Origin: Deltaproteobacteria bacterium
GTDB taxonomy: Bacteria; Myxococcota; UBA727; VGSZ01
Length of the DNA: 64,000 nt
Direction of reading: 5' to 3'
Assembly: GCA_020850995.1 (NCBI GenBank)
Contig: JADZDP010000177.1
Location: forward strand, 4,712 to 68,711
Under the pieces are notes generated by a model that saw only the letters and a list, made by a program, of their open reading frames with translations, searched no databases and had not been told where the DNA came from. Within the stretch, counting starts at the first letter, position 1. Each line of letters begins with the position of its first letter. Below, piece after piece: positions 3,934 to 40,706 of the stretch. Position numbers and translations under genes: made by a program.

Positions 3934-6294
<2,361 letters not shown>

Positions 6295-6668
6295 GGTCGG
6301 CTCCAGCTCGCGTCGCTCGTCGCTGACGCGGGGTTTCTCCCACGGCGGGAGAGTGCGGCACAGCGCGCGCACCAAGGGAGCGTAGGAACCGGCCCGCGCC
6401 GGACAAGGGCAGGCCCGCCGCGCGGACCGCCGCGGGGGCGCGCGCTCAGCGCTCGGCGGCCTCGAGCGCGACGCTCTCCGACTGCAACCACAAGCTGCCC
6501 AGCGCCCACGTCGAGAACGCCACGGTGGCCAGGGCGAGCACGAGGGGCTTCCAGAACGAGGGCACGGGGGCGGCGGGGGATGTGGGGGCGGTCTGCACCG
6601 GCGGTCTCCTGATGGCGTCGGGCAACGCTACGTGGAGACGGGGTCCGACCGCAAAATTTCCTTCCCGC

Positions 6669-8990
6669 ATGCCAAGCTCCGGCCGCGTGGGCCACAACGG
6701 CGCAGATCGAACCGAGGTCTTGGGCGGCGGCGACCCCAAGCGGCAGCCCCGGCTCGGCCGCTATCGCCTGGAGCGGCGCATCGGCCAGGGGGGCATGGCC
6801 GAGGTGTTCCTGGCGCGCGCCGAGGGCCCCGGCGGCTTCGAGAAGCAGGTCGTCATCAAGCGCATCCGACCGCAGCTCGTGAAGAACGAGCGCTTCGTCG
6901 AGATGTTCCTGCGCGAGGGTCGCCTGTTGGCGGGCCTCGATCACCCGAACATCGTGCGCGTCTTCGAGCTCGACGAGGCCGAGGGCGAGTACTTCCTGGC
7001 GCTCGAGTACTTGGACGGCCTGTCGCTGCGCGAGCTGATGGAGCGCTACTGGTTCGCCGGCAGGACCGTGCCGCTCGAGCCGGTGCTGCGCGTCTTCTCC
7101 GAGGCCGCGCTCGGCTTGGCGCACGCCCACGGCCTCAAGGAGCCGGGCGGCGCCTCGGCCAACCTGGTGCACAGAGACGTCAGCCCCGACAACCTCTTCG
7201 TCACCTCCACCTCGATCACCAAGGTGCTCGACTTCGGCATCGCCAAGCGCGAGGGCCTCGACGTGCTCACCCAGACCGGGGAGCTCAAGGGCAAGATCCA
7301 GTTCATGTCGCCCGAGGCGCTGCGCGGCGACACCTTGGATGCGCGCACCGACCTGTGGTCCTTCGGCATCACCATGTACTGGGCGTGCGCGGGGCGGCGG
7401 CCCTTCGACGGCGTCACCGATGTGCACACCATCAAGGGCATCCTCGAGGATCCGCCGCCGCCCTTGCGGCAGTTCAACAGCAAGCTGCCGGTGGCGGTGG
7501 AGGACATCGTCGCCTCGTGCCTCGAGAAGGACCGCAGCAAGCGCGTCAAGAGCGCGGCGCAGCTGCACGACACGCTGAGCGCGCTGCTCCTGGACCTGCC
7601 GCGCGGCGCGCCCACGCCCGCCGAGCTGGTCGCGGCGGCTCGTGCGCTGCCCTCGGTAGAGCACGAGATCACGCCGCGCACGGCCGCCGTGGCGCCCACG
7701 GTGCAGTGGCCCGATCGCACCATGCCGGTGGCGGTGGGCTCGTCGGGCGGTTCCTCGTCGATGATCGGGGCGCGCGGCAAGAACGCCCTGCCGCTGCCCG
7801 AGGGGACGGCGCTCGAGAGCGCCAAGGGCACCGAGGCCGCCACCAAGATCGGCCGCAAGTTCCAATCGAGCGTGCCGCCCACCGACAAGGTGCGGCCCAA
7901 GGTCGAGGCCGCCGAGGCGAGCGATGGGAGCGGCGAATTCGAGGGCGCCACCGACCTGGTGCCGGCCTCGTCCCTCCACACCACCGACGAGCACCGGCGC
8001 GTGATGGTGAGCACCGAGCACTCCGACGAGGCGCTCGGCACCACCGGCCCGCTGCGCTTGGAGGGCGACGGCGCCGTGCAGCAGGGCTTCCAGCCGCCCT
8101 CGGACCCCGTCATCGACGTCGAGCGCGAGCCGCGCTCCGGACCCAGGGCCGCGGCGCCCGCGGTGTCGCCGAGCGCGCCCACCATGCCGCACGTGGACCT
8201 CGCCGGCGTGGCGGCCGGCGCGCACGACATCCACGATCAGCACACCCAGGCGATGGTGGCGCTGCCGCAGTGGCCCGAGGCGGCCGAGGTCGAGATCCCC
8301 GCGGCGCGCCCGGCGCGCGTCGCGCCGGTGCTGGCCGGCATCGTCACGGCGCTGGCGATCGTGGTGGGCGCCTTGCACCTGAGCGGCATGCTCAATCGCG
8401 TCATCGATGGCCTGCTCGGGCGCGCGTACGCCGGCCTCGACGCCGGCACCGACCTGCCTGTCGACGCTGCGCACGAGGTCATCGCCGCGCCGGTCGACGC
8501 GGGCGCCGTCGTGGTGGACGGCGGCGGCGCGGCCCTCATCGACGCGGGCGCCGCGCCGGTCGTCGTCGACGCGGGCAGCGCCGCGCCCGCGGGGCGCACG
8601 CTCACCTTGATCGGCCCCGAGCACATCGAGTGGCTTGGGCCCACCGCCGAGCCCTTGGGCCTCGCGCGCGTGACGGTGCAGCTCGCGAGCGACGCCAAGG
8701 TCGTGTTTGCAAAAGACGCGCGCCGCGGCTGCACCACCCGCATCACCTTGGCGCCCGCGCAGCACACGGTCGACTACGCCCGCCTGCCCAAGGGGAAGAT
8801 CACGGTGCGCACGCGCCCGCCGGCCGAGGTGTTCCTCGGCGGCGAGCGGCTCGGGCGCACGCCGCTGCCGCCGCGAGAGCTGGTGGCCGGGCACTGCGAG
8901 CTACGCCTGGTGGCGCGCAAGAAGAGCAAGAAGGTGCCGGTCGAGGTGCGCGCCGGCAAGACCACCACGCTGACGCAAGACCTGCGCTGA
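6669..8990 (+). CDS. Ser/Thr protein kinase with C-terminal PEGA domain
   Basis: Kinase subdomains GQGGMAEVF, HRDVSPDNLFV, DFGIAK, SPE. The C-terminus has a PEGA-like module (RPPAEVFLGGERLGRTPL). The start was set to the ATG at 6669 (MPSSGR) to avoid overlapping the lon promoter; the table ORF begins at 6525. Confidence 0.75.
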   Translation: MPSSGRVGHNGADRTEVLGGGDPKRQPRLGRYRLERRIGQGGMAEVFLARAEGPGGFEKQVVIKRIRPQLVKNERFVEMFLREGRLLAGLDHPNIVRVFELDEAEGEYFLALEYLDGLSLRELMERYWFAGRTVPLEPVLRVFSEAALGLAHAHGLKEPGGASANLVHRDVSPDNLFVTSTSITKVLDFGIAKREGLDVLTQTGELKGKIQFMSPEALRGDTLDARTDLWSFGITMYWACAGRRPFDGVTDVHTIKGILEDPPPPLRQFNSKLPVAVEDIVASCLEKDRSKRVKSAAQLHDTLSALLLDLPRGAPTPAELVAAARALPSVEHEITPRTAAVAPTVQWPDRTMPVAVGSSGGSSSMIGARGKNALPLPEGTALESAKGTEAATKIGRKFQSSVPPTDKVRPKVEAAEASDGSGEFEGATDLVPASSLHTTDEHRRVMVSTEHSDEALGTTGPLRLEGDGAVQQGFQPPSDPVIDVEREPRSGPRAAAPAVSPSAPTMPHVDLAGVAAGAHDIHDQHTQAMVALPQWPEAAEVEIPAARPARVAPVLAGIVTALAIVVGALHLSGMLNRVIDGLLGRAYAGLDAGTDLPVDAAHEVIAAPVDAGAVVVDGGGAALIDAGAAPVVVDAGSAAPAGRTLTLIGPEHIEWLGPTAEPLGLARVTVQLASDAKVVFAKDARRGCTTRITLAPAQHTVDYARLPKGKITVRTRPPAEVFLGGERLGRTPLPPRELVAGHCELRLVARKKSKKVPVEVRAGKTTTLTQDLR

Positions 8991-15698: not shown

Positions 15699-16302
15699 GC
15701 TGCTGGTCCACGGCCGCGCCGCTCGCGGTCGAGGCACGCAGCAAGGCGTGCACCGCGCGAAAGAGCGCGCGGCTCGCGTGCGGCGCCTTGCCCTTGCTGT
15801 GCTCCAGCGCAGCCTGGCGCGCGAGCTGGCGCAGCGCGGTGCGGTCGGCCGTGGGCTGCTCGACGACGAGCGCGGCCAGCGCCGCGTCACCCTCGGTGAC
15901 GAGACGGTCGCGCCAGCGCTCGGCGGCCTTGAAGGCGGCCGACGAGGGCGCGTCTTCCTGCAGCAGGGCCTGCAGCTGCGCATCGATGGGGCGCGCGTCG
16001 ATGGTGCGCATGATGCGGCCGATGAACTGGATCTGGCGCCGGTAGCCGCCGTGCGCGGTGATGCGCCGCGCCTCCATGACCGCGGCCTTGAGGTCGTCGG
16101 GCAGCTCGAGGCGCGCGAGCTTGCCCCCGGGCAGCTTCACTAGCGCCTCGCCGAGCTTCTCGAGGCGCCACGCGCGCTCCTTCTTGGCGGCCCTGGTCTC
16201 GCGCTCCTCACCCTGGTCCACCAGCTCGCGGTTGGCGGTGGCGTTGGCCTCGGCGAAGGGATCGACGCCGGGCTCGCCTTGCTCACGTCGTCGTCGGCTC
16301 AT
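15682..16302 (-). CDS. yjgA: YjgA/DarP (DUF615) 50S ribosomal subunit assembly factor
   Basis: Aligns with E. coli YjgA along its length: [32 protein letters not shown] vs [66 protein letters not shown] vs [35 protein letters not shown]. Confidence 0.8.
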   Translation of the reverse strand: [206 protein letters not shown]

Positions 16303-16699
16303 GCTTCACGCTCCTCGACCCTTGGCGAGCGATGCGCTCCACCAAGCTCGCTAGCTGCGCGGCCAGCGCGGCGGCGTCGGCGCTGGCGGCCTCGGGTTTG
16401 ACGATCACGATCAGGTCGCGCGCGTCCAGCCACTCTTTGTGGCGCCGCACGATCTCGCGCAGGCGCCGCCGCACCCGGTTGCGCACCACGGCGTTGCCCA
16501 CCTTCTTCGAGACCGTGAAGCCCACGCGCCCGGGCCTACCGTCGCGGCGCATGCGGGCCAGCAGCACCAGGAGCGCGCCGGCCGTCCGTGTGCCCTGGCG
16601 CTCGATGCGCGTGAAGTCGCCGGAGCGCAGCACCCGACGCTGCGGCGGCAGGCCCTGCGGCAGCTCGTGCACGGTGCGCGCGACGCGCGTCGCGCTCAC
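16283..16699 (-). CDS. rnpA: RNase P protein component
   Basis: [25 protein letters not shown] motif. The start was placed at a GTG overlapping the rpmH stop (GTGA), 16699 by residue counting in table ORF 16283..17134. An alternative start is the GTG at 16633. Confidence 0.75.
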
Positions 16700-16854
16700 T
16701 TCTGGTAGATGGTCGGGGTCAGGCGCTTGCGCCCGTGGGCGCGGCGGCGCTTGATGACGTTCTGGCCGCCGGGGGTGGCCATGCGGGCGCGGAAGCCGTG
16801 AGTACGGGCGCGCTTCACACGGGACGGCTGATAGGTACGAAGGGGCTTGGCCAT
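16696..16854 (-). CDS. rpmH: 50S ribosomal protein L34
   Basis: Reverse-strand translation gives [52 protein letters not shown]. It is below the 60-aa threshold of the ORF track. Coordinates are anchored by residue counting within table ORF 16283..17134 and may be off by 1 nt. Confidence 0.85.
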
Positions 16855-17318
16855 ACGGGCTCCACGTCTCGCGACGGAAGAGAGTGATCGGGGCGAAGGT
16901 GCTGGTTGGTGCCGCGCTTGTCAACGGGTGGCCGTGGGGCCTCGATCGGACCTGATGTATCGCCCTGCGAGCACGCCGGGGGCCTCTGCAGATCTCGGTC
17001 CGGTCGTTCGTTGCGCTCGCGTGACGGCGCGCCCGTCGCCGTCGATCCATCATCGACGATCGCGGTGCGCAGCGAGACGCGCGCGCGCAATCCGCGAGAT
17101 CCGAGCGCGAACGCCGATGAGGATCGGCGCGCATGTCCGCGGAAGATCGTGCTCGCGCAGATTCTTCGCCGAATCGCTTGCGGGGGCGACGAAGCGTCTG
17201 GTACAGGAACGCTCCCCGTCGACGAAAGGGTCGACATCACAACCACGCTGCCGTCAGGAGGGGTCACGCCACGCGCGACTCCGAGGGACGGCCGTCACCG
17301 TGGAGAGGCACCGCAGGC

Positions 17319-26984: not shown

Positions 26985-27698
26985 TCAGCGACCGTTGTAG
27001 TCGCCGAACACGTAGTCGGCGGCGTACCAATCGGGCTGGCGCTCGACGTGCTCGGCGATGCGCGTGGCGCGCGTGGTGCCGGTCTTCACGTCGATGGCCT
27101 CGAGGTGCATCACCAAGCGAACGCCGTCGGACATGTTGGGCTGCGCGTCGGCGACCAGGCCGATGAGCGCGCCGACGATGAAGCGCAGGCCCAAGATGAT
27201 GAGACCGGGCTGGCGCGTGTTCAAGCGCATCAGGCGATAGGTGACGATGACGTCGGCGGGCTGGATCTTGCCGTCGCGGGCCAGGCTATCGGCGCGCGCC
27301 GCCAGCTTGGCGCTCTCGGTGTACTCGACGTAGAGCGAGCGCATCATGTCGTCGTCGCGGGCCACCACCTCGGAGACACCCTTGCTGCGCAGGATGTCGA
27401 TGATGGCGTCGTAGGTGAGCGCGTCCACCGACGAGTCGTTGTTGCTGCCGCCGTTCTTGTTGACCACCCACACGCGCTCGGTGGGCGCGATCTTCAGGTC
27501 TTTGATGGGGTCGGGCATCATCGAGCGCACGCCCTTGGCGTAGAGGAGCTGGATCTCCTCGCCCGCGGGCGTGGGCTCACCGCCGGTGATGCCGGGGATG
27601 GGGATGGGGATCATGTTGAGCAGCGCGGCGGGCGAGCAGCCGGCCGAGGCGGCGACGATCAGGGACATGATGGCGGCGGCGGAGAAGCGGCGAAGCAT
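26985..27698 (-). CDS. Lipoprotein, function unknown (weak CsgG/LpoB-like impression)
   Basis: Signal peptide plus lipobox (LIVAASAGCSP). Confidence 0.45.
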   Translation of the reverse strand: MLRRFSAAAIMSLIVAASAGCSPAALLNMIPIPIPGITGGEPTPAGEEIQLLYAKGVRSMMPDPIKDLKIAPTERVWVVNKNGGSNNDSSVDALTYDAIIDILRSKGVSEVVARDDDMMRSLYVEYTESAKLAARADSLARDGKIQPADVIVTYRLMRLNTRQPGLIILGLRFIVGALIGLVADAQPNMSDGVRLVMHLEAIDVKTGTTRATRIAEHVERQPDWYAADYVFGDYNGR

Positions 27699-27754
27699 TG
27701 CTGTTCCTCGGGGACGCGTGGGGCGGTGGAGCGCGGTGAGCGGCGTGGTGTGGG

Positions 27755-28576
27755 TCAGGGGAGGGTGGGGATGCGCGGCAGTTGCGGGATGTCGAAGGGC
27801 AGCACGTCGTTGAGCGTGTTCTGCGCGATGGCGATGAAGTTGTTGGCGGCGGCGATGGGGTCGAGCGGCTGCCCGGTGGCGGCCTGGGCCTGCGCCCGCG
27901 CCAGCGGTGCAATCTCGAAGAGCACGCGCGTGGGCAGAAGCCAGATGCCGCCCTGGCGTACCAGGTCGACGGCGTCGAACTTGGTGGTCTCGACGGCGCC
28001 GTTGCTCTTGCTGGTGACGTCGAAGTCGACGCGGAACACCTCGCCGCCCAGGGGCTGCACGCGGCGCAGCGTGACCACCAGGTCCTCGAAGCGCGGCAGC
28101 GAGGTCAACAAGGGCTCGAGCTCTTCGGGACGGAACACCACGGAGCGCTGGCGCAGGTGGTTGACCTCGGCGTCGGGCAGGGCGGCGTGGGCGCGGCGCT
28201 GGCGATCGACGATGTCTTGGCGGCGCTTGAGCTCGTTCCGCACGTCGGGGCGGTGCCAGTTCCAGTCACCCACCTGGTTCGGGATCGAGTCGTCGTGCAC
28301 GCCGCGGTAGTCGGTGGGGCGCGCGAGCAGCGGCAGGTAGCAGTTGAAGATCACCTGCCGCACCGTGCTCTGCAGCTCCATCTCTTCTTGCCAGGTGAGC
28401 ATGGGCAGCTCTTGGAAGGGCTCTTCGGGGCGCAAACCACCCTCGGGCGCGGCGGCCGCGGCGTCTTGCGCGGTGGCGGGCGCGGCGGCGAGCGTGCCGC
28501 CCACGAGGGTGGCGGCGGCGGTGAGCACAACGACTCGACTTCGAACCAGGTGAGCGACCCCTGCGCGTCTTCGCAT
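27755..28576 (-). CDS. Secreted hypothetical protein
   Basis: Signal peptide (VVVLTAAATLVGGTLAAAPATAQ). Same strand, closely spaced with the two downstream genes. Confidence 0.45.
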   Translation of the reverse strand: MRRRAGVAHLVRSRVVVLTAAATLVGGTLAAAPATAQDAAAAAPEGGLRPEEPFQELPMLTWQEEMELQSTVRQVIFNCYLPLLARPTDYRGVHDDSIPNQVGDWNWHRPDVRNELKRRQDIVDRQRRAHAALPDAEVNHLRQRSVVFRPEELEPLLTSLPRFEDLVVTLRRVQPLGGEVFRVDFDVTSKSNGAVETTKFDAVDLVRQGGIWLLPTRVLFEIAPLARAQAQAATGQPLDPIAAANNFIAIAQNTLNDVLPFDIPQLPRIPTLP

Positions 28577-32000: not shown

Positions 32001-32867
32001 TCAGCTCGAGCAGTTGTTGGCCGCTGGGCTGCAAATGCCGACGTCGACCGGGAGCTGGAAGCTGCCGCCGGCGAAGCCACAACAGAGCTCGTCGCTGCCG
32101 CAGTCGTCGGTGCTCACGCACACCACCGCGTCGGTCTGACCGGCCTGCACGCAGCTGCCGGCGCTGACGCAGCTCGTCGCGTTGGTGGCGCCGTCGAGGC
32201 AGCACTCTTCGCTGAGCTCGCAGTCCTCGGCGCCGTCACAGACCACCGGCACGGCGAGGAGCGCGCCCGTGCAGCTGCCGCTGGACGCGATGCAGTTGCC
32301 GACGATGGCGAAGCTGACGTCGACGGTGACGCAGCAGACCGCGTTGGGGTCGCTGCAGGTGGTGGCGTCGCAGACCACGCCCGCCTCAGCGGAGCCCTCG
32401 TACTCTTGCCCCTGCACGAGCTCGCACGCGAGGCCGCTGCACACCTCGTTGCTCTCGCAGGGCACGATCACGGGGTCGCCGGCGGCGTTGCAGGTGCGCT
32501 CCGCCGACACGCTCTCGCAACCCGGCACGCACTCGCCCTCGCCCTCGCCCTCGCCGGGGTCGCCCTCGCCCTCGCCCTCGCCGGGGTCGCCCTCGCCCTC
32601 ACCCTCACCCTCACCTTCGCCCGCGGGCTCGCAGTCGCCGTCGTCGCACTCCTCGTCGTCGTCGCAGTCGCGGTCGCGCTCGCACTCCACGCACTCGCCG
32701 TCGACGCACAGGTTGTCGCCGAAGCAGTCGCTGGCTTGCGTGCAGTCGCCGGGCGCCAGGAAGAGGCCGCACGAGAGCGCCAAGGGTGCGAGCGCGAGCA
32801 GGAGCGTGAGCACGCCCACGCGGGCAGGCACGGGTGAGCGGACGGGGACGGGGTGCATCTTGGTCAT
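32001..32867 (-). CDS. Secreted Cys-rich lipoprotein with (GE)n linker (paralog of 54220..54915)
   Basis: Lipobox LALSC; GEGEGEGEGDPGEGEGEGDPGEGEGEGE; about 40 Cys in conserved spacing (ECVPGCE...ERTC...CDGAEDCE..EECC.DG...CGFAGG.F.LPVD.G.C.PAANNCS). Confidence 0.65.
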   Translation of the reverse strand: MTKMHPVPVRSPVPARVGVLTLLLALAPLALSCGLFLAPGDCTQASDCFGDNLCVDGECVECERDRDCDDDEECDDGDCEPAGEGEGEGEGEGDPGEGEGEGDPGEGEGEGECVPGCESVSAERTCNAAGDPVIVPCESNEVCSGLACELVQGQEYEGSAEAGVVCDATTCSDPNAVCCVTVDVSFAIVGNCIASSGSCTGALLAVPVVCDGAEDCELSEECCLDGATNATSCVSAGSCVQAGQTDAVVCVSTDDCGSDELCCGFAGGSFQLPVDVGICSPAANNCSS

Positions 32868-32897
32868 GGGACACCCTCGGAGGGACGGGGCGGAGTG

Positions 32898-32987
32898 GCG
32901 GAGAGAGAGGGATTCGAACCCTCGAGACGGTTTCCCGCCTACGCGATTTCCAGTCGCGTGCCTTCAGCCACTCGGCCATCTCTCCAC
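32898..32987 (-). tRNA. tRNA-Ser (anticodon GGA)
   Basis: Reverse complement reads GGAGAGATGGCCGAGTGGCTGAAGGCACGCGACTGGAAATCGCG...long variable arm...GGGTTCGAATCCCTCTCTCTCCGCCA, a class II cloverleaf. Coordinates approximate to 1 nt. Confidence 0.85.
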
Positions 32988-33102
32988 AGGCACCGCCGGG
33001 ACGCCGCTCATCTAGCGGATCTTTTTCCGCGCGTCGACGCCCACGGTTGAGGGCCCTGCGCCAGCGTTGACGACACCCGTGGTGCTGGCTACCTTGGTCA
33101 GC

Positions 33103-33192
33103 GGACAGCTGGCCGAGTGGCTGAAGGCACCTGACTCGAAATCAGGAGTACCCGCAAGGGTATCGGGGGTTCGAATCCCTCGCTGTCCGCCA
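33103..33192 (+). tRNA. tRNA-Ser (anticodon CGA)
   Basis: GGACAGCTGGCCGAGTGGCTGAAGGCACCTGACTCGAAATCAGG...GGGGGTTCGAATCCCTCGCTGTCCGCCA, divergent from the other tRNA-Ser. Coordinates approximate to 1 nt. Confidence 0.85.
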
Positions 33193-33263
33193 TCTTTCTC
33201 GACGACAAACCGCTTCGCAGCACACAAGGGCACACCCCTTGCTGCGCAGTGGTTTTCGCGCCC

Positions 33264-33338
33264 TCTGACTGGGTATCTGACAGGGAGCGGCTCGTGACGA
33301 TGACGTCTTGCCGCCGAGACAGGGTGTTTGACAGGGAA
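33264..33338. repeat. Direct-repeat motif copies (TCTGACTGGG, TCTGACAGGGAG, TTTGACAGGGAA) upstream of the NTase operon
   Basis: 33271-33286 gggtatctgacaggga; 33322-33338 gggtgtttgacagggaa. The same two motifs recur fused at 37712-37737. Confidence 0.5.
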
Positions 33339-33393
33339 AGGCCGCGAGATCGAGACTCTAGTTTTCTCGCTTCGGGAATGTTATGATCTAGAT

Positions 33394-33855
33394 ATGACGC
33401 TCGACAACGCAACCCTTCGCGACGCGTTGACCGCCCTCGGTGAGCTCCTCGTCGACCGCGGTGAGACCTACGACATCGTCGTCATCGGAGGCGGTGCATT
33501 GTTGCTCGGCGGCCACATCGAGCGGCCGACGAAGGATCTCGACGTCCTCGCGCGCATCGAGGGTGATCGCTGGCTCAGCGCGCAGCCGCTGCCCGATGCG
33601 CTGCGCGCCGCCGTCGCCGATGTCGGCGACGCGTTCGGGCTCGCGCGTGACTGGCTCAACTGCGGGCCGACGTCCCTGCTCGCGGGCGGGCTCCCCGACG
33701 GCTTCCCGGAACGGTTGAGCATCGAGCGTTTCGACGCGCTGACGCTCCTCACATCGGCGCGGTGGTGCCGCACGCACGATGCCTCCGAGGGCTTTCGCGG
33801 GCGGCAGCTTCTGCCGGTGCTGCAAGAGCTCGGTGTCGAGGTCGCCGATGTCTAG
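33394..33855 (+). CDS. Nucleotidyltransferase-fold (pol-beta superfamily) small protein
   Basis: hG[GS]-x13-DhD pattern (VVIGGGALLLGGHIERPTKDLDVLARI). Start taken as ATG 33394; the TTG start of the table ORF (33328) lies inside the repeat motif. Translationally coupled to the next gene. Confidence 0.5.
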   Translation: MTLDNATLRDALTALGELLVDRGETYDIVVIGGGALLLGGHIERPTKDLDVLARIEGDRWLSAQPLPDALRAAVADVGDAFGLARDWLNCGPTSLLAGGLPDGFPERLSIERFDALTLLTSARWCRTHDASEGFRGRQLLPVLQELGVEVADV

Positions 33856-34786
33856 CGCCGTCCAGAAGCAGGCCGCGGATCTCGCTTGGAGCCTCTGGAC
33901 GGAGCTCGGCATCGCCGGCGTCGTGCGGGAGCATGCCCACGTGGCAATCGATCCCGAGCCGCTCTTCGTCGCCACGCCGCTCCTTGCAGCGCACGACGCG
34001 CGCCTGCTCGAACAGGTGTCACGTTGGAGCGTGCTCTTCGGCGACTGGCTCGCGATGAGCCGAGTGCAGGCGCTGTGCAAGGCGGCGGAACCCACCGTGC
34101 ATGACGCGTTCGTGTCCTTCGCCGCGTCGATCCCCGGTGGGGGGCGGTGGACGTGTGAGGCCACGAAGATGTCGAAGCAGAAGAACCCGCCGCAGCTGAC
34201 GTCGATGGAGCTGCCGCTCTTGCGACCGGCGCTGGTCCGGCTGCGCCTGCGCGCGATATGCGGCGTCGGTGCACGCGCCGACGTCGTCGCAGAGCTCATC
34301 GGGCACGCGCGCGTATGGTTGCGTGCGTCCGACTTCGAGCATCTCGGCTACACGAAGAGAAACGTCGCTCGCTTGCTGTCCGAGCTCTGCGACGCCGGGT
34401 TTCTGCGGTCGCTGAAGGAGAAGAACGCGATCGCCTATCGCCTCGCCGACGGCGGGCGGTGGTCTGACCTCGTCGGCGCCACGGCCGTCACGTGGCCGGC
34501 ATGGCCCGCAATCTTCGACTTCGCCCGGTTGGCGCTGCGGCTCGATGGGGAACGTGCGAAGAGCGAAGGCGTGCGCCGGGTCGCGGCGGCCCAGACAGCG
34601 CACGCGCTCGAGCCGCTTTGCGATCGCTTGGACCTCGCGCAACCGCCGACCGCGACGGCGAATCCCCAGGCGTGGGCCGCAACGACCGCGTTCGTGGAGC
34701 GCGAGGTGGCAGCCTTCGCGGGCGCGACGTCGCCGTCGATGTCGCGTGCCGGCGGAGCTCGCGGCCGCGTCAGTGCCGCGCGTTGA
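33848..34786 (+). CDS. Hypothetical protein with predicted winged-helix segment, partner of the NTase-fold gene
   Basis: ATG 33848 overlaps the NTase stop. TKRNVARLLSELCDAGFLRSLKEKNAIAYRLAD resembles a wHTH. One Rx5H (RASDFEH) occurrence is noted but not diagnostic. Confidence 0.45.
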   Translation: MSSAVQKQAADLAWSLWTELGIAGVVREHAHVAIDPEPLFVATPLLAAHDARLLEQVSRWSVLFGDWLAMSRVQALCKAAEPTVHDAFVSFAASIPGGGRWTCEATKMSKQKNPPQLTSMELPLLRPALVRLRLRAICGVGARADVVAELIGHARVWLRASDFEHLGYTKRNVARLLSELCDAGFLRSLKEKNAIAYRLADGGRWSDLVGATAVTWPAWPAIFDFARLALRLDGERAKSEGVRRVAAAQTAHALEPLCDRLDLAQPPTATANPQAWAATTAFVEREVAAFAGATSPSMSRAGGARGRVSAAR

Positions 34787-34831
34787 TCGCGTCGCGCCGC
34801 GTCGCCGTGTCGACGAAACGGCGCTCACTCG

Positions 34832-35935
34832 TCAGCGTCCACATACCGGGCACGCAAGCCGCCCTTGCGCCGATGGCGCGCATCGTTCGCAAAGCAGGTG
34901 GATCTTGTCGTCGCATACCGCGGGGCGAGCGGCAGGGAGCAGGCAGCCGTCGCACGCAGGCACGTCGAGCGTGCGCGCGGCCGAGGGGAGGTGCAGGCTC
35001 AGCACGCGCTCCTCCTTCCGTCGACGCACGCGCACGTCGACGACGATCGTGGGCACTTCGACGACGGCGGCGAAGACGATCGTCGCGCGCGCACGCAACG
35101 TGTAGCGGGCGCGCAACTCCGCCAACTTCGCCGCGCGCTCATTCTCGAGATGTTCGACGCGGGCTTTGACCGCCGCCGGATCACGTTGCTTGCGACCGGT
35201 ACGCGTTTCGTAGATGAGCTCGTGAAAGTACGCATCGACGCGCTCGTGGTCGCGCCGGTGCCGGCGGGCGACGTTGTCCTGATGTGCGCCGGCGAGCGCG
35301 GCCAGCCGGGCGCGCAGCCGGGGCGGGAGGACCTCCGCGCGCACCGCAGGGAGGGCGCGGTGCGCTCCACGAAGCGCGCTCGTGGTGTCGAGCGCGAGCG
35401 CCGCGACCAGGGCCGAGTCCGGCGCGGCGCCGTCCGATGCGCACAACGCCAGCACCTCGAACGCCTCGTCGCGGTCGTCCGCCTCGACGACGAGGCGCGT
35501 GCCGACGAACGCGTACGCCTCGTTGCGAGCGCGTACCGCGCCGACGTCGACAACCGCGTTGCGCAGCGCGAAGCGGGCCGCGAGCGCCTCGGCCTGGCTC
35601 GCGCGCGGTGCCGCCAGCTCTGCGTCGGCGACGACGTACCCACGCAGCGACGAGCGCTCATCGACCAACCGATCGAGGAGCCCGGTCCCGAGCCCGCACG
35701 CAACGGCCCCTGTCCGTGCGGCTGACGCGACCTGCACCTCCTCCTGGAGCGCGAGCCGGGTGGCCAACGCCGACGGGAGGATCGCGAGGGCCTCCTCCTC
35801 GCCGTCGGCTGCGTTGGCGACCTCGACGAGCGCGCCGTCGCGCGCGAGGGCGTCCGCGCAGAAGCGCACGGGGCTCGGCAGTGTCGCCGGCAGTGTCGCC
35901 GGCAGTGTCGTCGGCAGCGCGGGCAGCGAGGTCAT
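34832..35935 (-). CDS. Hypothetical protein with C-terminal Cys-rich Zn-ribbon-like tail, co-operonic with SNF2 helicase
   Basis: C-terminus VPACDGCLLPAARPAVCDDKIHLLCERCAPSAQGRLACPVCGR (8 Cys + 1 His). The 4-nt overlap (35932-35935) with the upstream helicase gene implies coupling. Confidence 0.5.
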   Translation of the reverse strand: MTSLPALPTTLPATLPATLPSPVRFCADALARDGALVEVANAADGEEEALAILPSALATRLALQEEVQVASAARTGAVACGLGTGLLDRLVDERSSLRGYVVADAELAAPRASQAEALAARFALRNAVVDVGAVRARNEAYAFVGTRLVVEADDRDEAFEVLALCASDGAAPDSALVAALALDTTSALRGAHRALPAVRAEVLPPRLRARLAALAGAHQDNVARRHRRDHERVDAYFHELIYETRTGRKQRDPAAVKARVEHLENERAAKLAELRARYTLRARATIVFAAVVEVPTIVVDVRVRRRKEERVLSLHLPSAARTLDVPACDGCLLPAARPAVCDDKIHLLCERCAPSAQGRLACPVCGR

Positions 35936-37626
35936 GCGGCGAAGTCCTCGCCGAACACCGCGTCGTCGAGCTTCTTGGAGTTCTCGTACGTTCCGCGCGC
36001 CGCGCCGATCTCCGCCGCGAGCGCGTCGAAGCCACGGTCGATCTCCGCCTCGTCCTTGCTGGCGGCGTAGAGCGCGAGCACGCGCTCCTCGAGGTCGCGG
36101 TCATCGGCGAGGTTGCCGAGCACCATGTCCATCTCGCCGACGACGAGCTCGAACAGATGGAGCCGCCGATCGAGCACGTCGAGCAGCTTCTCCTCCGCCG
36201 ACCCCTTCATCGCGAGGTTGTAGACGTGCACGTCGCGCGTCTGGCCCATGCGGTGGACGCGGCCGATGCGCTGCTCGAGCAGCATCGGGTTCCACGGCAC
36301 GTCGAAGCTGACGACGACGTTGCAGTGCTGCAGGTTGGTCCCCTCGGCGCCGACGTCGGTGGACACGAGGGCGCAGCGCTCCTCGCGGAACCGCTCGACG
36401 GCGAGCGCCTTCTCGTCGGCCGACTGCGCGCCAGAGACCACGACGTGCCGCACGCCAGCGTCGTTGAACGCGCGCTCGATCGCCGCCAGCGTCGCGCGGA
36501 AGCGCGTGAACACCAGCGCGTGCCCGCCGTGCGCCCGCACCAATGCGACCAGCTGCTCGAGCTTCTTCGTCTGCGTCGCGGCCCGTGCCGCCTCGCGGGC
36601 AGCGGCGAAGGCGGGACCGTCGAGCGCGGTCGCGCGGTCAAGCGTGGCGCGCACGGCGTCAGGGCTCGAGCCCGCCTCGAGGAGCAGCGTGGTGCCGAGG
36701 AGCGTTCGCCGCGCGGCCTGCGCGTCGGCGCGCACGAGATCGACGACCCGATCGTAGAGCGCGCGCTCCGCGGCCAGCGGCTCGACGACGGCGGTGGTCA
36801 CGAAGCGCGGCGGCAGCTTCAAGCCGCACGCCGCGCGCGTGTTGCGCACCATGACGTCCCCAAGCAACTGTCGCAGCCGCTCGCGGTTCTTCGGCGAAGT
36901 CGGATCGGACTTGTCGACGAACTGCGCCTTGAACGCCGACGCCGTCGTGAGCTGGCCCGGCCGCAGCAACGTGACGAGCGCGTACAGCTCCTCGAGGCTC
37001 GTCTCGATCGGCGTGGCGGTGAGCAGCAGCAGGAAGCGGCTCTTCAGGCCGTCGACGAGCTTGTAGCCGAGGGTAGACTGCTTCTTGATGTGGTGGGCCT
37101 CGTCGACGACGACGAGATCCCACGAAGCGCTCTGGAGCAGTGGCGCGACTTTGGCGCCGCGCGCCTTGGCGAGCGACGCGAGCACGACACCGTCCCTCGC
37201 GAGGAACGCCGCCGGGTCTTGTTCGAAGGCGTGGTCATCGAGCGTCGCGGCCTGCACTCCGGCCTTCGCGAGGAGCTCGCCCCGCCACTGCGGAACGAGC
37301 GCCGGCGGTGCGATCACGAGGGTGCGGCGCGCCATGCCGCGCAGTTGGTACTCGCGCAGCACGAGGATCGCCTCGACGGTCTTGCCGAGCCCGACCTCGT
37401 CGGCGAGGAGCGCACGGCCGCGGAGCACGCGGAGCACGCGCCGGACGGTGTCGTGCTGGTAGGTGTGCGCGTCGACGCCGGCGAGCGACTGTGGCGAGAG
37501 CAGGTCGGTGAACGTCGCGGCCGACGCGAGGGTGTGCGCGCGCACCGCGAGCGAGAGGTCGACGAGCGTCATGGGCGCGCGCAGCAGCGCTGTGACGTCG
37601 CCCGTCGTCACGTCGGCGATCTCCAT
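35932..37626 (-). CDS. Compact SNF2-family (HepA/RapA-like) helicase/ATPase
   Basis: Motif I DEVGLGKT; motif II DLVVVDEAHHIK; motif III LLLTATP; C-terminal helicase motifs ...TDVGAEGTNLQ... and RIGRVHRMGQ; 564 aa. Confidence 0.8.
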   Translation of the reverse strand: MEIADVTTGDVTALLRAPMTLVDLSLAVRAHTLASAATFTDLLSPQSLAGVDAHTYQHDTVRRVLRVLRGRALLADEVGLGKTVEAILVLREYQLRGMARRTLVIAPPALVPQWRGELLAKAGVQAATLDDHAFEQDPAAFLARDGVVLASLAKARGAKVAPLLQSASWDLVVVDEAHHIKKQSTLGYKLVDGLKSRFLLLLTATPIETSLEELYALVTLLRPGQLTTASAFKAQFVDKSDPTSPKNRERLRQLLGDVMVRNTRAACGLKLPPRFVTTAVVEPLAAERALYDRVVDLVRADAQAARRTLLGTTLLLEAGSSPDAVRATLDRATALDGPAFAAAREAARAATQTKKLEQLVALVRAHGGHALVFTRFRATLAAIERAFNDAGVRHVVVSGAQSADEKALAVERFREERCALVSTDVGAEGTNLQHCNVVVSFDVPWNPMLLEQRIGRVHRMGQTRDVHVYNLAMKGSAEEKLLDVLDRRLHLFELVVGEMDMVLGNLADDRDLEERVLALYAASKDEAEIDRGFDALAAEIGAARGTYENSKKLDDAVFGEDFAA

Positions 37627-37711
37627 GGGCGGCGGCTCGACGCCAGCACCTCATCGCGAACGCGCGTCGCCATCGCCGCCGAGTAGCTGAAACGGCGGGC
37701 CGTTGCGATCC

Positions 37712-37737
37712 GGTTTGACAGGGAATCTGACAGGGTA
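37712..37737. repeat. Second copy of the TTTGACAGGGAA + TCTGACAGGG motif pair (same orientation), ~85 nt upstream of the helicase start
   Basis: ggtttgacagggaatctgacagggta; compare 33264-33338. Confidence 0.5.
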
Positions 37738-38009
37738 CGCCGTGCGAACGGTGCCCCTCGGTGCGCACACCGCCGCTCGCGCCGGCGGAGCCGGACGCGG
37801 CCGGCGCCGGGGCGTCGTACGTCTCGAACGTGCGCGTCCTGCAACGCGACGATGGACCAGCCCAGTAGCTCGGCTTCTCAGCTCGATTCACCCACCTATG
37901 GCCCTGGTGGCCGTGGCCGGTCTACGTTCACGACGCGGCGAGCCCCGCGGGGCGCCGATTCGCGCGCCGCTCGTCCAGAGAGCACACGCCCCGCGCAGAG
38001 GACCGGCTC

Positions 38010-39191
38010 ATGAAGAAGGCCACAGCCAGACTACGAGCGACCCGGTCGATCACGCTCTCTATCGCCAACTTCGCCCAGATCCGCAGTGTCGACCTCGCGC
38101 TTGGCGACCTGACCGTCCTTGTGGGTCCGCAAGGCGCAGGCAAGAGCCTCGCTCTACAGTGGCTCAAGGCGGGGATGGACGGGAAGCAGGTCATCGATGC
38201 GCTGCGCGCCGCCGGTCACCCCACCGAAAGATCCGACGTCGTCGTTGACCTCATCTTCGGCACCGGCATGGCACCGGCATGGCGGGCCGACTCGACCGTC
38301 ACTCTCGACGGAAAGACCATCACTCCGAAGGTACTGAGTCGTGTTGGAAACGGAGAGGAGCGCCTCTTCTTCATTCCTGCGCACCGCTCGATGCTGATTA
38401 GCGACGGCTGGGCGGCGCCCTTCCAAAAGCTCGGCTCCGACACCCCGGCAGTGGCGCGCCTCTTTAGCCAGAACCTCTTTGATCGCTTCAGCGGCAAGGA
38501 CGCGGGCACGCTCTTCCCCGTGGAGAAGCGCCTCAAGGCGGAGATCCGAAAACAGATCGACGACGCTGTCTTTCACGGTGGCAAGGTCGGAATCGCAGAG
38601 GATGCTCAGCATGCCCGTCGCCTCCGCCTCGCGCACGGGGACATGCACCTGCCGTTCATGACGTGGACTGCGGGCCAGCGCGAATTCACCCCACTCCTCC
38701 TCGCCCTCTATCACCTCCTCCCTTCGACCAAGCTGCGCAAGCGCAAAGGGACGGACTGGGTCGTTCTCGAGGAGCCGGAGATGGGACTTCACCCGCAAGC
38801 GATCACAGCTGTGATGCTGCTCGTCCTCGATCTCCTCTGGCGCGGCTACCGGGTCGTGATGTCGACTCACTCCCCGCACGTGCTGACCATGCTGTGGATG
38901 ATGCAGCGCCTCAAGGAGAACGCCGCTCGGTGGCAGCTCGTCTGCGAGGCCTTTGACGTGAAGGTACCGGCGCAGATGCGCAAGGTCGCGGAGGCCGCGC
39001 TCCAAAAAGACTACCGCGCCCACTTTCTGACATTCGGCAACGATGGGCATGTGACGTCGACGGAGATCACCGGTCTCGACCCATCTTCGGAGAACGAGGG
39101 CGAGGCCGAATGGGGCGGTCTCACGGGCTACTCGTCGCGTTTCGGTGACGTCGTGCGCAAGGCAGTGAACGAGGCCGAGAGTGGGCGCTAG
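38010..39191 (+). CDS. ABC-type (AAA_21/OLD-like) ATPase
   Basis: Walker A GPQGAGKS; Walker B/D-loop WVVLEEPEMGLHPQ; H-loop STHSPHVL; 393 aa. Codon usage and GC look visibly lower than the surrounding DNA. Confidence 0.7.
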   Translation: MKKATARLRATRSITLSIANFAQIRSVDLALGDLTVLVGPQGAGKSLALQWLKAGMDGKQVIDALRAAGHPTERSDVVVDLIFGTGMAPAWRADSTVTLDGKTITPKVLSRVGNGEERLFFIPAHRSMLISDGWAAPFQKLGSDTPAVARLFSQNLFDRFSGKDAGTLFPVEKRLKAEIRKQIDDAVFHGGKVGIAEDAQHARRLRLAHGDMHLPFMTWTAGQREFTPLLLALYHLLPSTKLRKRKGTDWVVLEEPEMGLHPQAITAVMLLVLDLLWRGYRVVMSTHSPHVLTMLWMMQRLKENAARWQLVCEAFDVKVPAQMRKVAEAALQKDYRAHFLTFGNDGHVTSTEITGLDPSSENEGEAEWGGLTGYSSRFGDVVRKAVNEAESGR

Positions 39192-39660
39192 CAAGGGCAG
39201 GAAGGCGACGCCCGTAAGGGCCGCGCTGGTCGACAACAGCCACCTGCTCAACCTCATTCAGGAAGGCCTCGGCGCGCTCAAGAGCTCGGACAAGGCCCTC
39301 ATCGCTGCCGAGCTCAAGTCCGCCTTCCTCGACAGCATCGACATCGACACAGGGCTCAGGGCGGGACACGATCAGGAGAATCGCTGGGACTACTTGCTAG
39401 GTCACGGGGCGAGAGAGGTTGTCGTTGCGCTCGAGACGCACGCAGCTCGCCAAGGAGAGATTCGCACGATCATCAGGAAGCGCCGCGCGGCGCTTGAACA
39501 GCTCAGGCCCCACCTGCGCGCCGGCTCCAAGATCACCGCGTGGTTCTGGGTTGCAACCGGCTCCGTCCGCTTTGCCGACACAGAGAAGGCCCCCCGCATA
39601 CTCGATCAGAATGGGATCACGTTCGTCGATAGGTGCCTCAAGGGGGCGCACCTCCGATGA
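39181..39660 (+). CDS. Small hypothetical protein (159 aa) coupled to the ABC ATPase; possible effector
   Basis: Overlaps the ATPase 3' end by 11 nt. No motif recognised with confidence (acidic-residue cluster ...VVVALETH...). Confidence 0.4.
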   Translation: MGASKGRKATPVRAALVDNSHLLNLIQEGLGALKSSDKALIAAELKSAFLDSIDIDTGLRAGHDQENRWDYLLGHGAREVVVALETHAARQGEIRTIIRKRRAALEQLRPHLRAGSKITAWFWVATGSVRFADTEKAPRILDQNGITFVDRCLKGAHLR

Positions 39661-39836: not shown

Positions 39837-40706
39837 CTACCGAATGGTAAACGCCAGCAAGCCCGGCAAGCTGGTGGTGAACACGCCGGTCGCGTCGTCG
39901 AGCTGATGGAACCACACCTGCAGCCGCAGGGAGCAGGACGCGGCGCCGTCCTCGTCGTGAAACACGCCGGCGGGTTGGCAGTAGCTCACGAAGGGCATCT
40001 GGCGCGTCAGCTCGGTGCACACCTCGTTGGCGGCCTCGATGGCGTCGTCGCAGCGGGCGCTGTCCATGGCCTCGAGCGCGCGCGCGTCGTGGTGCACCAT
40101 CAGGTGGCTGCGCGGTCCCTCCCAGGCGTCGGCGTCGATGTCGGCGATGTTGGCGCGCGCGAACACCTCTTCCACAACGTGCTCGCAGCCCTGGAACTCC
40201 TCTTGGTTGCAGTTGGCGTCGCAGCCGTCCCACGACTCGTGGTTGCCGTCGTCGCACACCTCGCCGTCGTCGAGCGCGCCGTTGCCGCAGCTTGGCGCCG
40301 GGCCCACCAGCGGCGCGCCCGCGAAGTCGAGCACGTGCACGTCGTGGAGGGGGCCGGTGTCGCCGGGGCGCCAGACCTCGAAGCGCACGGCGCAGCGCGG
40401 CGTCACGTGCGCGTAGAAGAACGCGGTGGTGTAGCCGCACGAGCTCACCGTGCCGTCTTGGTAGAGCTCGCCGCACACCGCTGCGAGCTCTTGGTCCACG
40501 GCGTCGCAGCTGGCGGCGCTGACCTCGCCCTCGAGCGTGGCGTCGACCAGCTGGTGCACGCGGTACTCGAGCTCGCCGCTGCCGGGGCGCTCCGGCTCGG
40601 TGATGGCGCGCTTGACGACGCTGGCGAGCTCCCTGGTCTGTTCGGCCGGCGATTGGCCGCAGGCGGCGAGGGCACACACGAGGAGGGTGGGGGTGAGCTT
40701 GCGCAT
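39837..40706 (-). CDS. Lipoprotein with one Myxococcus cysteine-rich repeat
   Basis: Lipobox LVCALAAC; CGNGALDDGEVCDDGNHESWDGCDANC. Confidence 0.6.
   Translation of the reverse strand: MRKLTPTLLVCALAACGQSPAEQTRELASVVKRAITEPERPGSGELEYRVHQLVDATLEGEVSAASCDAVDQELAAVCGELYQDGTVSSCGYTTAFFYAHVTPRCAVRFEVWRPGDTGPLHDVHVLDFAGAPLVGPAPSCGNGALDDGEVCDDGNHESWDGCDANCNQEEFQGCEHVVEEVFARANIADIDADAWEGPRSHLMVHHDARALEAMDSARCDDAIEAANEVCTELTRQMPFVSYCQPAGVFHDEDGAASCSLRLQVWFHQLDDATGVFTTSLPGLLAFTIR

Follow-up and report, generated by a model that had tools for sequence, protein, structure and literature searches.

Three two-gene cassettes beside a tRNA-Ser pair in a myxobacterial genome, including a candidate PDC-M56 pair

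Gene content and base composition of the segment

We analyzed a stretch of 64 kb (the window) from a Polyangiaceae-like Myxococcota genome, that of an uncultured myxobacterium. The segment at 33.2–39.7 kb of the window lies beside two tRNA-Ser genes and carries six protein-coding genes, here named A to F. The features of the locus are as follows.

32896–32985, minus strand: tRNA-Ser, anticodon GGA (ARAGORN; Rfam tRNA 60.3 bits)
33103–33192, plus strand: tRNA-Ser, anticodon CGA (ARAGORN; Rfam tRNA 58.5 bits)
33267–33285 and 33318–33336, plus strand: two copies of GACWGGG-N5-TGACAGGG, in the AT-rich spacer upstream of the A/B operon
33394–33855, plus strand: A, DUF6036 / AbiEii-like minimal nucleotidyltransferase, 153 aa (Pfam)
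33848–34786, plus strand: B, nucleotidyltransferase partner with a central winged-helix-like region, 312 aa (8-nt overlap with A)
34832–35935, minus strand: C, SNF2 helicase partner with a RING-like C-terminus, 367 aa (4-nt overlap with D)
35932–37626, minus strand: D, core SNF2-family helicase, 564 aa (Pfam)
37717–37735, plus strand: third copy of the motif, GACAGGG-N5-TGACAGGG, between D and E, ~290 bp upstream of E
38010–39191, plus strand: E, PDC-M56A, ABC-type (AAA_21/AAA_15) ATPase without TOPRIM domain, 393 aa (PADLOC)
39181–39660, plus strand: F, PDC-M56B, partner with a predicted PD-(D/E)xK nuclease fold, 159 aa (11-nt overlap with E)

The six genes form three overlapping pairs, A/B, D/C and E/F, and an independent gene caller reproduced the calls on public contigs. 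The original prediction had described divergent tRNA-Ser genes (GGA and CGA) next to three independent two-gene units. Both descriptions hold: ARAGORN and Rfam agree on the tRNAs, and the separate units are borne out by the overlaps, the independent gene calls and a patchy conservation that goes cassette by cassette. The accompanying domain assignments also stand, namely a nucleotidyltransferase (NTase) for A, a weak winged-helix (wHTH) region in B, SNF2 for D, a zinc-binding domain in C and an ABC ATPase for E. The 3' end of tRNA-Ser(CGA) points toward the gene cluster, which begins ~200 bp away. When the region was scanned with Rfam, the two tRNAs alone scored above threshold; sub-threshold matches to 'Plastid-psbl-rps4' run antisense to the tRNAs and were dismissed as artefacts. 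A sigma-70 promoter scan returned zero sites. Paralogy of two flanking lipoprotein-like genes, prompted by DNA repeats that they share, was considered and rejected.

The GC content of the whole window is 0.710. Genes A–D (33394–37626) have a GC content of 0.713, which equals the window median and falls at the 53rd percentile of same-size windows, while E/F (38010–39660) is the lowest 1651-bp stretch of the 64 kb, with a value of 0.636. The 201-bp spacer between the tRNA genes and A has a GC content of 0.562. Together, E/F and this spacer bring the value for the whole region down to 0.687. Scored per gene against 36 background genes, E (GC 0.635) has z-scores of -2.9 for GC and -2.1 for GC3, and F has -2.8 and -2.0, respectively, so that this pair is low in GC and GC3, and in codon score as well. 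B and C are mildly low in GC3 (z about -1), and D has native codon usage (GC3 0.933, z +0.4). Equally low GC3 is found in three window genes outside the segment (14–2830, 16283–17134 and 27048–28310). Atypical composition is thus limited to E/F (1.65 kb) and the spacer, approximately one quarter of the segment. A visibly low GC content over ~6.5 kb, as originally proposed, was not found, and the GC and codon-usage profiles confirm an atypical composition for E/F but not for A–D, which resemble the background. The snippet of the ATPase gene that had been offered as the clearest case is located at 38367–38405, inside the low-GC gene E. E/F is the sole compositionally foreign cassette, and it looks recently imported.

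The E/F pair

E matches the PADLOC model PDC-M56A over positions 4–380 of 382 (E=1.8e-117, 390.5 bits), and F matches PDC-M56B over positions 9–146 of 151 (E=3.4e-21). With full-length matches to both components and an adjacent, overlapping operon, E/F is a new member of the PADLOC candidate system PDC-M56. The system is one of 145 PDC candidates predicted from guilt-by-embedding (Payne et al., 2024, bioRxiv 10.1101/2024.01.29.577857), and our literature search retrieved no mention of PDC-M56.

The ATPase motifs of E are intact (Walker A GPQGAGKS, VVLEEPE and THS), and its Pfam matches are AAA_21, AAA_15 and AAA_23 only. Neither E nor F contains a TOPRIM domain. Because E lacks this domain, the label 'OLD-like' that the protein had been given is justified at the level of the ABC ATPase and not beyond it. 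The predicted structure of F is confidently that of a PD-(D/E)xK nuclease fold, with invariant D, E and K residues.

The pair is mobile and is found in varied surroundings. One E/F-like pair lies inside a cluster of SNF2, 1496-aa methyltransferase and HNH genes, and another among housekeeping genes. A 61%-identical pair is encoded on a phage contig that has a T7-type portal gene and whose GC content is 0.64, and an E-like ATPase without partner is carried by a mobilizable plasmid. The closest relatives of E/F (56–61% identical) are found in Betaproteobacteria, in Burkholderiaceae and on the phage contig of matching GC. E had no match among the INPHARED phages.

By analogy with defence systems built around ABC ATPases, we infer a defence activity with a sensor-effector logic for E/F. 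The ATPase E would detect foreign DNA or some cue of infection, and would license the small nuclease F to cut nucleic acid, which may block the phage or kill the infected cell. If active, E/F gives the candidate family a myxobacterial member. The intact ABC ATPase with its PD-(D/E)xK-fold partner, together with the occurrence on a phage contig, also provides a mechanistic handle, and it is therefore reasonable to put PDC-M56 to an experimental test.

The A/B and D/C pairs

A matches the Pfam family DUF6036 (PF19502) with 28.6 bits (cut-off 23.6, E 1.5e-6), the alignment covering model positions 11–47 only, and scores 21.2 bits against AbiEii (PF08843), under the Pfam cut-off of 22.5. The NTase motif 'IGGGALLL...TKDLDV' (GGG...DLD) is retained. 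Compared with intact homologues of 180–195 residues, A carries an in-frame deletion of ~40 residues, which removes the 'RLASRADQIALKVYAA...' segment (tblastn) and is fixed in the strain relatives. Having lost these conserved residues, the NTase is probably inactive here, and B may be left over as a DNA-binding protein, either a remnant or a regulator.

The B family comprises at least 119 proteins without a Pfam domain, several of which show weak wHTH Pfam matches; in a profile search against the PDB, B matched the ArsR protein 2oqg (E=0.0068). A B-family gene was always found directly downstream of a DUF6036-type NTase (three independent contexts). Across these contexts the pairs adjoin FitA/PIN, AbiEi/Eii and bpMoxR genes, and in two of the three the neighbours are toxin-antitoxin or conflict genes. 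The family was absent from IMG/VR. B homologues of 473 aa were considered as possible A+B fusions and rejected, as they have neither an NTase domain nor similarity to A. In its behaviour the conserved A/B pair resembles toxin-antitoxin or abortive-infection modules, and with its DUF6036 NTase and wHTH protein it defines a type that carries no name so far.

The composite motif upstream of A/B recurs upstream of E/F, with three occurrences against 0.10 expected, a number reached in 0 of 100 shuffles. In other genomes, homologous cassettes lack the TGACAGGG motif in their upstream regions. Its presence here before both pairs hints at some coupling between them.

D has a complete SNF2 core (Pfam SNF2-rel_dom 1.4e-37, Helicase_C 1.6e-22) with the motifs GxGKT, DEAH and QRIGRVHRMGQ. 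A comparison between strains revealed 21 synonymous and 2 non-synonymous codon differences, and D is under purifying selection. The C-terminus of C contains eight putative zinc ligands that are invariant in the alignment, in the arrangement C-x2-C-x9-C-x4-H-x2-C-x2-C-x9-C-x2-C. RING domains of the C3HC4 type ligate zinc in a cross-brace, with the consensus C-x2-C-x(9-39)-C-x(1-3)-H-x(2-3)-C-x2-C-x(4-48)-C-x2-C. The ligand spacing in C is compatible with this consensus except for the four residues between the third cysteine and the histidine. The profile match of C to the RING chain 8i3x is sub-threshold (E=0.99), and the AlphaFold2 model (pLDDT 90) had no match among solved structures. The C family is uncharacterised and has 1,416 cluster representatives; of 45 loci, at least 43 have an SNF2 gene next to the C-family gene. 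Long members of the family were evaluated as D+C fusions and rejected, since they lack an SNF2 domain; one of them has an IclR HTH.

Because of its native composition, the purifying selection and its ordinary neighbours, D/C is most likely a chromosomal remodelling motor associated with DNA or with RNA polymerase and not a defence system, although our certainty is low. C may be a targeting or adaptor subunit of the translationally coupled SNF2 ATPase D. Alternatively, D/C could itself be a defence system, a minimal relative of the DISARM DrmD or BREX BrxH-type helicases, split so that C provides the C-terminal module absent from D. We consider this improbable. The best PADLOC and NCBIfam matches of D are indeed DrmD, BrxH, ZorD and DpdE, but the scores stay far under the curated cut-offs (218.3 bits against 950 for DrmD_b, 205.2 against 610 for DrmD, and similarly low for the DpdE models; the RapA score is 175.7 against 576). 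C has a weak similarity to DrmD models at their far C-terminal end (E about 1e-3), yet only 3–4 of 34 C-family members match DrmD at E<=0.01, and homology to the DrmD C-terminus was rejected as too weak. In one D/C context, genes for toxin-antitoxin modules, transposases and TIR proteins abound. Against this, 61 neighbour proteins from 13 loci, a small sample obtained with a crude gene caller, showed no enrichment for defence, the only PADLOC matches being two generic kinases. No DISARM or BREX partner genes were found near D/C, the composition of the pair is native and the C family is missing from the viral contigs of IMG/VR.

A wider reading, which strikes us as more doubtful still, holds that D/C is a widespread two-subunit bacterial machine and, as a separate matter, that the orphaned wHTH protein B may now regulate the PDC-M56 cassette via the TGACAGGG repeats. 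Rad5, Rad16 and HLTF are eukaryotic remodellers that combine SNF2 and RING domains, and D/C would by analogy be their prokaryotic counterpart, with a role in DNA repair or transcription-coupled remodelling. The D/C type is in any case a conserved and unnamed pair, which with ~1,400 clusters deserves a family description.

Origin of the segment and comparison with known systems

We consider it reasonably probable that three functionally independent two-gene cassettes accumulated here side by side, as opposed to the integration of a single element. Each cassette has a patchy distribution and occurs in varied contexts, and the three never co-occur in the 80 C-family loci and the other contexts examined. 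That the segment lies beside tRNA genes may be chance, or the site may be a permissive insertion spot. Three patchy cassettes next to tRNA genes also look like a defence or accessory hotspot, which counts against accretion. Synteny anchored on CstA in GTDB species genomes gave 80 loci, none of which contained dedA, the two tRNA genes or a gene of the segment; the nearest available genomes are distant, with CstA only 64–71% identical. All strain-level relatives (~99% nucleotide identity) have the same arrangement, without presence/absence polymorphism.

The original prediction was that the segment may be an old, decayed, low-GC island. As a single element, it would have inserted at tRNA-Ser(CGA), carried three anti-phage systems and lost its integrase. 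The start of the cluster 200 bp from the tRNA 3' end is consistent with such an element, as are the patchy distribution of the cassettes and their varied contexts, the low GC of E/F and its PADLOC match, the slightly low GC3 of B and C, the decay of NTase A, which fits an old element, and the motif common to the A/B and E/F upstream regions. An integrase is indeed missing, as had been noted, both among the open reading frames of the segment (33.2–39.7 kb, all accounted for) and among the nearest flanking genes. A tRNA-derived direct repeat that could represent an att scar is likewise missing from the window, where probes of 20 and 28 nt, allowed three mismatches at most, match the two tRNA genes only. 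The median GC of A–D and the fully native codon usage of D also argue against a single island, as do the separate occurrence of the cassettes elsewhere, the ordinary genes around D/C and the lack of polymorphism among the strain relatives. We therefore regard this explanation as unlikely. The PADLOC search of the six proteins returned E/F as the PDC-M56 candidate, and the neighbour sample showed no defence association for D/C. The term 'defence-like' that had been applied to all three units is supported for E/F and, given the toxin-antitoxin or conflict genes beside its homologues in two of three contexts, for A/B, but is not supported for D/C.

At the other extreme, all six genes could be native, with the GC dip of E/F reflecting amino-acid composition or a weak codon bias at low expression. 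The low GC3 of the three other window genes, the arrangement fixed among strain relatives and the missing mobility genes are compatible with this. We nevertheless judge it highly improbable, as E/F is the 1.65-kb stretch of lowest GC in the window, with GC3 and codon score low as well, and its closest relatives, 56–61% identical, belong to Betaproteobacteria, Burkholderiaceae and a phage contig of matching GC; by contrast, the highly conserved CstA is only 64–71% identical to its nearest relatives. Accretion of separate cassettes remains our preferred explanation. Since only one cassette, the catalogued candidate pair, looks recently imported, the segment is a fairly ordinary accessory-gene patch, in which a defence island integrated as a unit is not clearly recognizable. 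Support for a genomic island is weak and the locus is unremarkable in this respect; the two unnamed gene pairs, defined as by-products, may be more useful.

Like tRNA-integrated islands, the segment is a cluster of accessory genes directly downstream of a tRNA 3' end; unlike them, it has neither an integrase nor a flanking direct repeat derived from the tRNA 3' end, and only about a quarter of it is atypical in composition. D shares a complete SNF2 ATPase core with DrmD, BrxHII, RapA (HepA) and DpdE, and resembles RapA in its native composition and ordinary neighbours. RapA, however, has about 960 residues with N-terminal domains, whereas D is a bare core of 564 residues, without the N- or C-terminal accessory domains of these four proteins, and scores 3- to 5-fold under the curated cut-offs of bacterial SNF2 helicase families. 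An obligatory partner like C, with its RING-like zinc domain, has not been described for the DrmD, BrxHII, RapA or DpdE systems. DISARM components DrmA, DrmB and DrmM were absent from the six proteins, the tested flanking genes and the D/C contexts examined.

AbiE is a type IV toxin-antitoxin system of a wHTH antitoxin (AbiEi) and an NTase toxin (AbiEii). A/B likewise is a bicistron of two overlapping genes, one for a pol-beta-type NTase and one for a protein with a wHTH region, and its homologues lie beside toxin-antitoxin modules. In contrast to AbiE, the NTase comes first, it is small (153 aa; 180–195 aa when intact) with a large in-frame deletion, and it scores under the AbiEii cut-off; the downstream protein B has no AbiEi match in Pfam or PADLOC.

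The combination of an ABC-type ATPase with a nuclease-fold protein in E/F recalls HEC-02, Gabija GajA/B, PARIS AriA/B, OLD nucleases and Septu PtuA/B. E gives partial matches to the Old, AriA, GajA and HEC-01A models and to OLD and PtuA structures. All of these matches are confined to the Walker A motif or to the signature/Walker B part, and those to the Old and GajA models span ~60–100 residues. In OLD-family nucleases and GajA, the ABC ATPase domain is fused to a TOPRIM nuclease domain; E shows no such fusion, and the fold of F is PD-(D/E)xK. HEC-02 pairs an ABC ATPase with a NERD PD-(D/E)xK protein. E/F differs from these ABC-ATPase systems in that E has just 393 residues and F is a separate protein of 159 residues, which is unrelated in sequence to NERD, GajB, AriB and PtuB. 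This copy of E/F is not embedded in restriction-modification, BREX or DISARM loci, and nothing structural sets it apart from PDC-M56, itself a prediction. As in PDC-M56, each of the two proteins corresponds to its component model along the full length, and the two are encoded by adjacent, overlapping genes, an architecture that the homologous pairs keep.

Gene pairs beside the tRNA-Ser genes

GC3-guided gene calling resolved three overlapping gene pairs, A/B, D/C and E/F, beside a divergent pair of tRNA-Ser genes that both ARAGORN and Rfam detected. The two tRNA genes and the three two-gene units had been read from the sequence in the original prediction, and both observations hold.

32896-32985, minus strand: tRNA-Ser (GGA)
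33103-33192, plus strand: tRNA-Ser (CGA), divergent from tRNA-Ser (GGA)
33267-33285 and 33318-33336, plus strand: two copies of GACWGGG-N5-TGACAGGG, upstream of A/B
33394-33855, plus strand: gene A, DUF6036 nucleotidyltransferase (NTase); overlaps B
33848-34786, plus strand: gene B, partner of A; overlaps A
34832-35935, minus strand: gene C, zinc protein; overlaps D
35932-37626, minus strand: gene D, SNF2 helicase; overlaps C
37717-37735, plus strand: one copy of GACWGGG-N5-TGACAGGG, about 290 bp upstream of E
38010-39191, plus strand: gene E, ABC ATPase; overlaps F
39181-39660, plus strand: gene F, small partner of E; overlaps E

When public contigs from this organism (metagenome-assembled genome GCA_041918315.1) were called independently, all six genes came out with identical lengths. 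A similarity search with CstA, a conserved protein encoded near the tRNA pair, placed the organism near Polyangiaceae and other Myxococcota. Sub-threshold Rfam matches to 'Plastid-psbl-rps4 3UTR' (32899-32950, plus strand; 33138-33189, minus strand) lie antisense to the tRNA-Ser genes and are almost certainly artefacts, because that plastid family overlaps a trnS gene. The flanking genes encode native-looking Cys-rich lipoproteins. The one adjoining tRNA-Ser (GGA), at 32001-32867 on the minus strand, has a signal peptide and lipobox together with (GEGEGE/GDP)n and Cys/Asp-rich repeats, especially at 32526-32740, which in the DNA are tandem CTCGCC-type hexamers. The gene at 39837-40706 contains a similar short motif, DDGEVCDDGN, but paralogy of the two proteins was rejected.

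The composite motif upstream of A/B and E, with TGACAGGG half-sites spaced 12 bp apart, occurs three times against 0.10 expected, and all four exact copies of TGACAGGG in the 64-kb window fall at these three sites. It contains the -35-like hexamer TTGACA and might serve A/B and E/F as a common operator or promoter. Homologous cassettes of other genomes lack the motif in their upstream regions.

Composition and the single-island model

The segment had been proposed to be one tRNA-Ser-flanked island with about 6.5 kb of lowered GC content. The genes, tRNAs and architecture of that proposal stand, but the lowered GC covers less of the segment than described. With a window GC of 71.0%, the stretch from A to D (33394-37626) has a GC of 0.713, at the 53rd percentile of same-length window stretches, whereas E/F (38010-39660) reaches 0.636, the lowest value of any 1651-bp stretch in the 64-kb window. 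The average of the full proposed interval (32898-39660) is 0.687, because E/F and a 201-bp spacer after the tRNA (GC 0.562) drag it down. With 36 background genes as reference (GC 0.716±0.028, GC3 0.911±0.053), the GC3 of D (0.933) is native and B and C fall slightly short (z about -1). For E and F the departures are larger: z -2.9 and -2.8 in GC, -2.1 and -2.0 in GC3, and -2.3 and -2.8 in codon score. Three other window genes (14-2830, 16283-17134 and 27048-28310) are as deviant in GC3 and codon score (z -2.1 to -2.9), so that E/F is a moderate outlier in GC3. The plus-strand call at 27048-28310 may itself be a gene-calling artefact, since two ORFs on the minus strand (26985-27698 and 27755-28576), both higher in GC3, clash with it.

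A single integration event is unsupported. No partial copies of either tRNA-Ser gene were found elsewhere in the window, and the predicted lack of an integrase was confirmed for the segment and the adjoining genes. None of the 80 C-family loci carries A, B, E or F, and co-occurrence of the three pairs was not found in any other context examined. In the nearest species-level genomes CstA is just 64-71% identical and the neighbouring genes and tRNAs are not shared, so the proposed synteny comparison does not discriminate. Contigs of strain-level relatives, drawn from several samples, are colinear with the window at about 99% identity. The data are consistent with gain of one cassette at a time, E/F having arrived last, and are compatible both with and without a role for the tRNA neighbourhood as a permissive site.

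The A/B and D/C pairs

The three modules had been described as defence-like, which is partly supported: E/F is a catalogued candidate defence pair and A/B a decayed toxin-antitoxin-like pair, but the SNF2 pair gave no evidence of a defence role. By Pfam, A scores above the threshold for DUF6036, whose members are nucleotidyltransferases of uncharacterised function, and narrowly below that for AbiEii. B, which has no Pfam domain, is one of at least 119 related proteins, each about 300 residues long. For the predicted winged-helix partner the signals are weak, both in the central region of B (ArsR 2oqg, E=0.0068) and in several family members (HVO_A0261_N, MarR_2, HTH_Crp_2, HTH_20). In three independent contexts a DUF6036/AbiEii-like NTase of 180-195 residues lies directly upstream of, and overlaps, a B homologue, and two of the three adjoin conflict genes (FitA/PIN, AbiEi/AbiEii or bpMoxR). 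Relative to intact homologues, A keeps the GGG...DLD catalytic motif but has an in-frame gap of about 40 residues, the conserved 'RxDQIAxKxYAA' segment among them; every strain-level relative has this 153-residue version. In L091, a locus from another Myxococcota metagenome-assembled genome, the NTase upstream of a B homologue is split into ORFs of 65 and 115 residues (7413-8008), an apparent second, independent decay with the partner intact. Taken together, these features fit a toxin-antitoxin-like module with a decay-prone NTase. Assignment to AbiE was rejected: the genes stand in the opposite order, the AbiEi domain is absent and the AbiEii match stays under the threshold.

D comprises the entire SNF2 core without accessory domains (SNF2-rel_dom, 1.4e-37; Helicase_C, 1.6e-22), and its best matches, among them DrmD, RapA and DpdE, score 3- to 5-fold below NCBIfam cut-offs. 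The predicted Zn-ribbon partner is a zinc-ligand protein, but not a simple ribbon: the invariant C-terminus of C (C-x2-C-x9-C-x4-H-x2-C-x2-C-x9-C-x2-C) has eight predicted zinc ligands in a RING-like arrangement. A second motif, RRHxRDHxRIxxYF, is also conserved. An exhaustive profile search gave 1,416 cluster representatives, and the family is therefore large, though unnamed. Of 80 metagenome loci, 45 have enough sequence upstream of C to judge, and at least 43 of these 45 place an SNF2 gene immediately before it, typically with a 4-bp overlap; C-SNF2 fusions were not found. A weak similarity to the DrmD C-terminus was not accepted as homology, because it is confined to 3-4 of 34 members.

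Codon differences between strains number 21 synonymous against 2 non-synonymous in D, a clear sign of purifying selection. For C, the comparison with about 99%-identical strains (L001, L182 and L183) gives 4 synonymous and 9 non-synonymous differences, which suggests relaxed or diversifying selection, though the numbers are small. The surroundings of C/D vary from locus to locus. Among 61 neighbour proteins at 13 loci, Pfam finds ordinary regulatory, transport and metabolic domains, and the sole PADLOC matches are two generic Ser/Thr kinases; one locus, L090, has many toxin-antitoxin, transposase and TIR genes. A possible defence role for D/C has no positive support, and our tentative preference is for D as a chromosomal remodelling motor and C as a zinc-binding adaptor subunit. 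This large uncharacterised family of SNF2 partners is the most interesting by-product of the analysis.

The E/F pair and its relation to known systems

Both proteins of E/F match the PADLOC phage defence candidate PDC-M56, as PDC-M56A (E=1.8e-117, model positions 4-380 of 382) and PDC-M56B (E=3.4e-21, positions 9-146 of 151). The PDC systems are 145 untested candidates, predicted from homologues embedded in BREX, DISARM or type I RM loci (Payne et al., bioRxiv 10.1101/2024.01.29.577857); a literature search found no mention of PDC-M56 by name. The ATPase motifs of E are intact (Walker A GPQGAGKS, Walker B VVLEEPE, signature-like TAGQ, H-loop THS), and residues D70, E85 and K100 of F are invariant across its family of more than 465 proteins. 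Related pairs adjoin an SNF2 helicase, a 1496-residue methyltransferase and an HNH protein in one context and lie amid housekeeping genes in another. The IMG/VR contig IMGVR_UViG_3300048575_000521 (L184, GC 0.64) carries a phage-borne PDC-M56-type cassette (4796-6486; 61% identity for E, the closest homologue found, and 43% for F), 1.3 kb from a T7-type portal gene (Head-tail_con, 1.5e-90). An E-type ATPase without the partner is present on a mobilizable Opitutaceae plasmid.

What is shown for E/F is its fold, its motifs, its pairing and its mobility. Because of the PDC-M56 matches, the motifs, the F family and the varied and mobile settings, we read the pair as a horizontally acquired cassette of an ATPase sensor and a predicted nuclease effector. 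The predicted OLD-like ATPase with a small partner is upheld in its motifs and pairing, but relatedness of E to the OLD, GajA, AriA and PtuA ATPases is limited to short motif-bearing stretches, and E has no TOPRIM domain. The anti-phage function and activation logic proposed for E/F are inferred from the analogous systems HEC-02, Gabija, PARIS and Septu.
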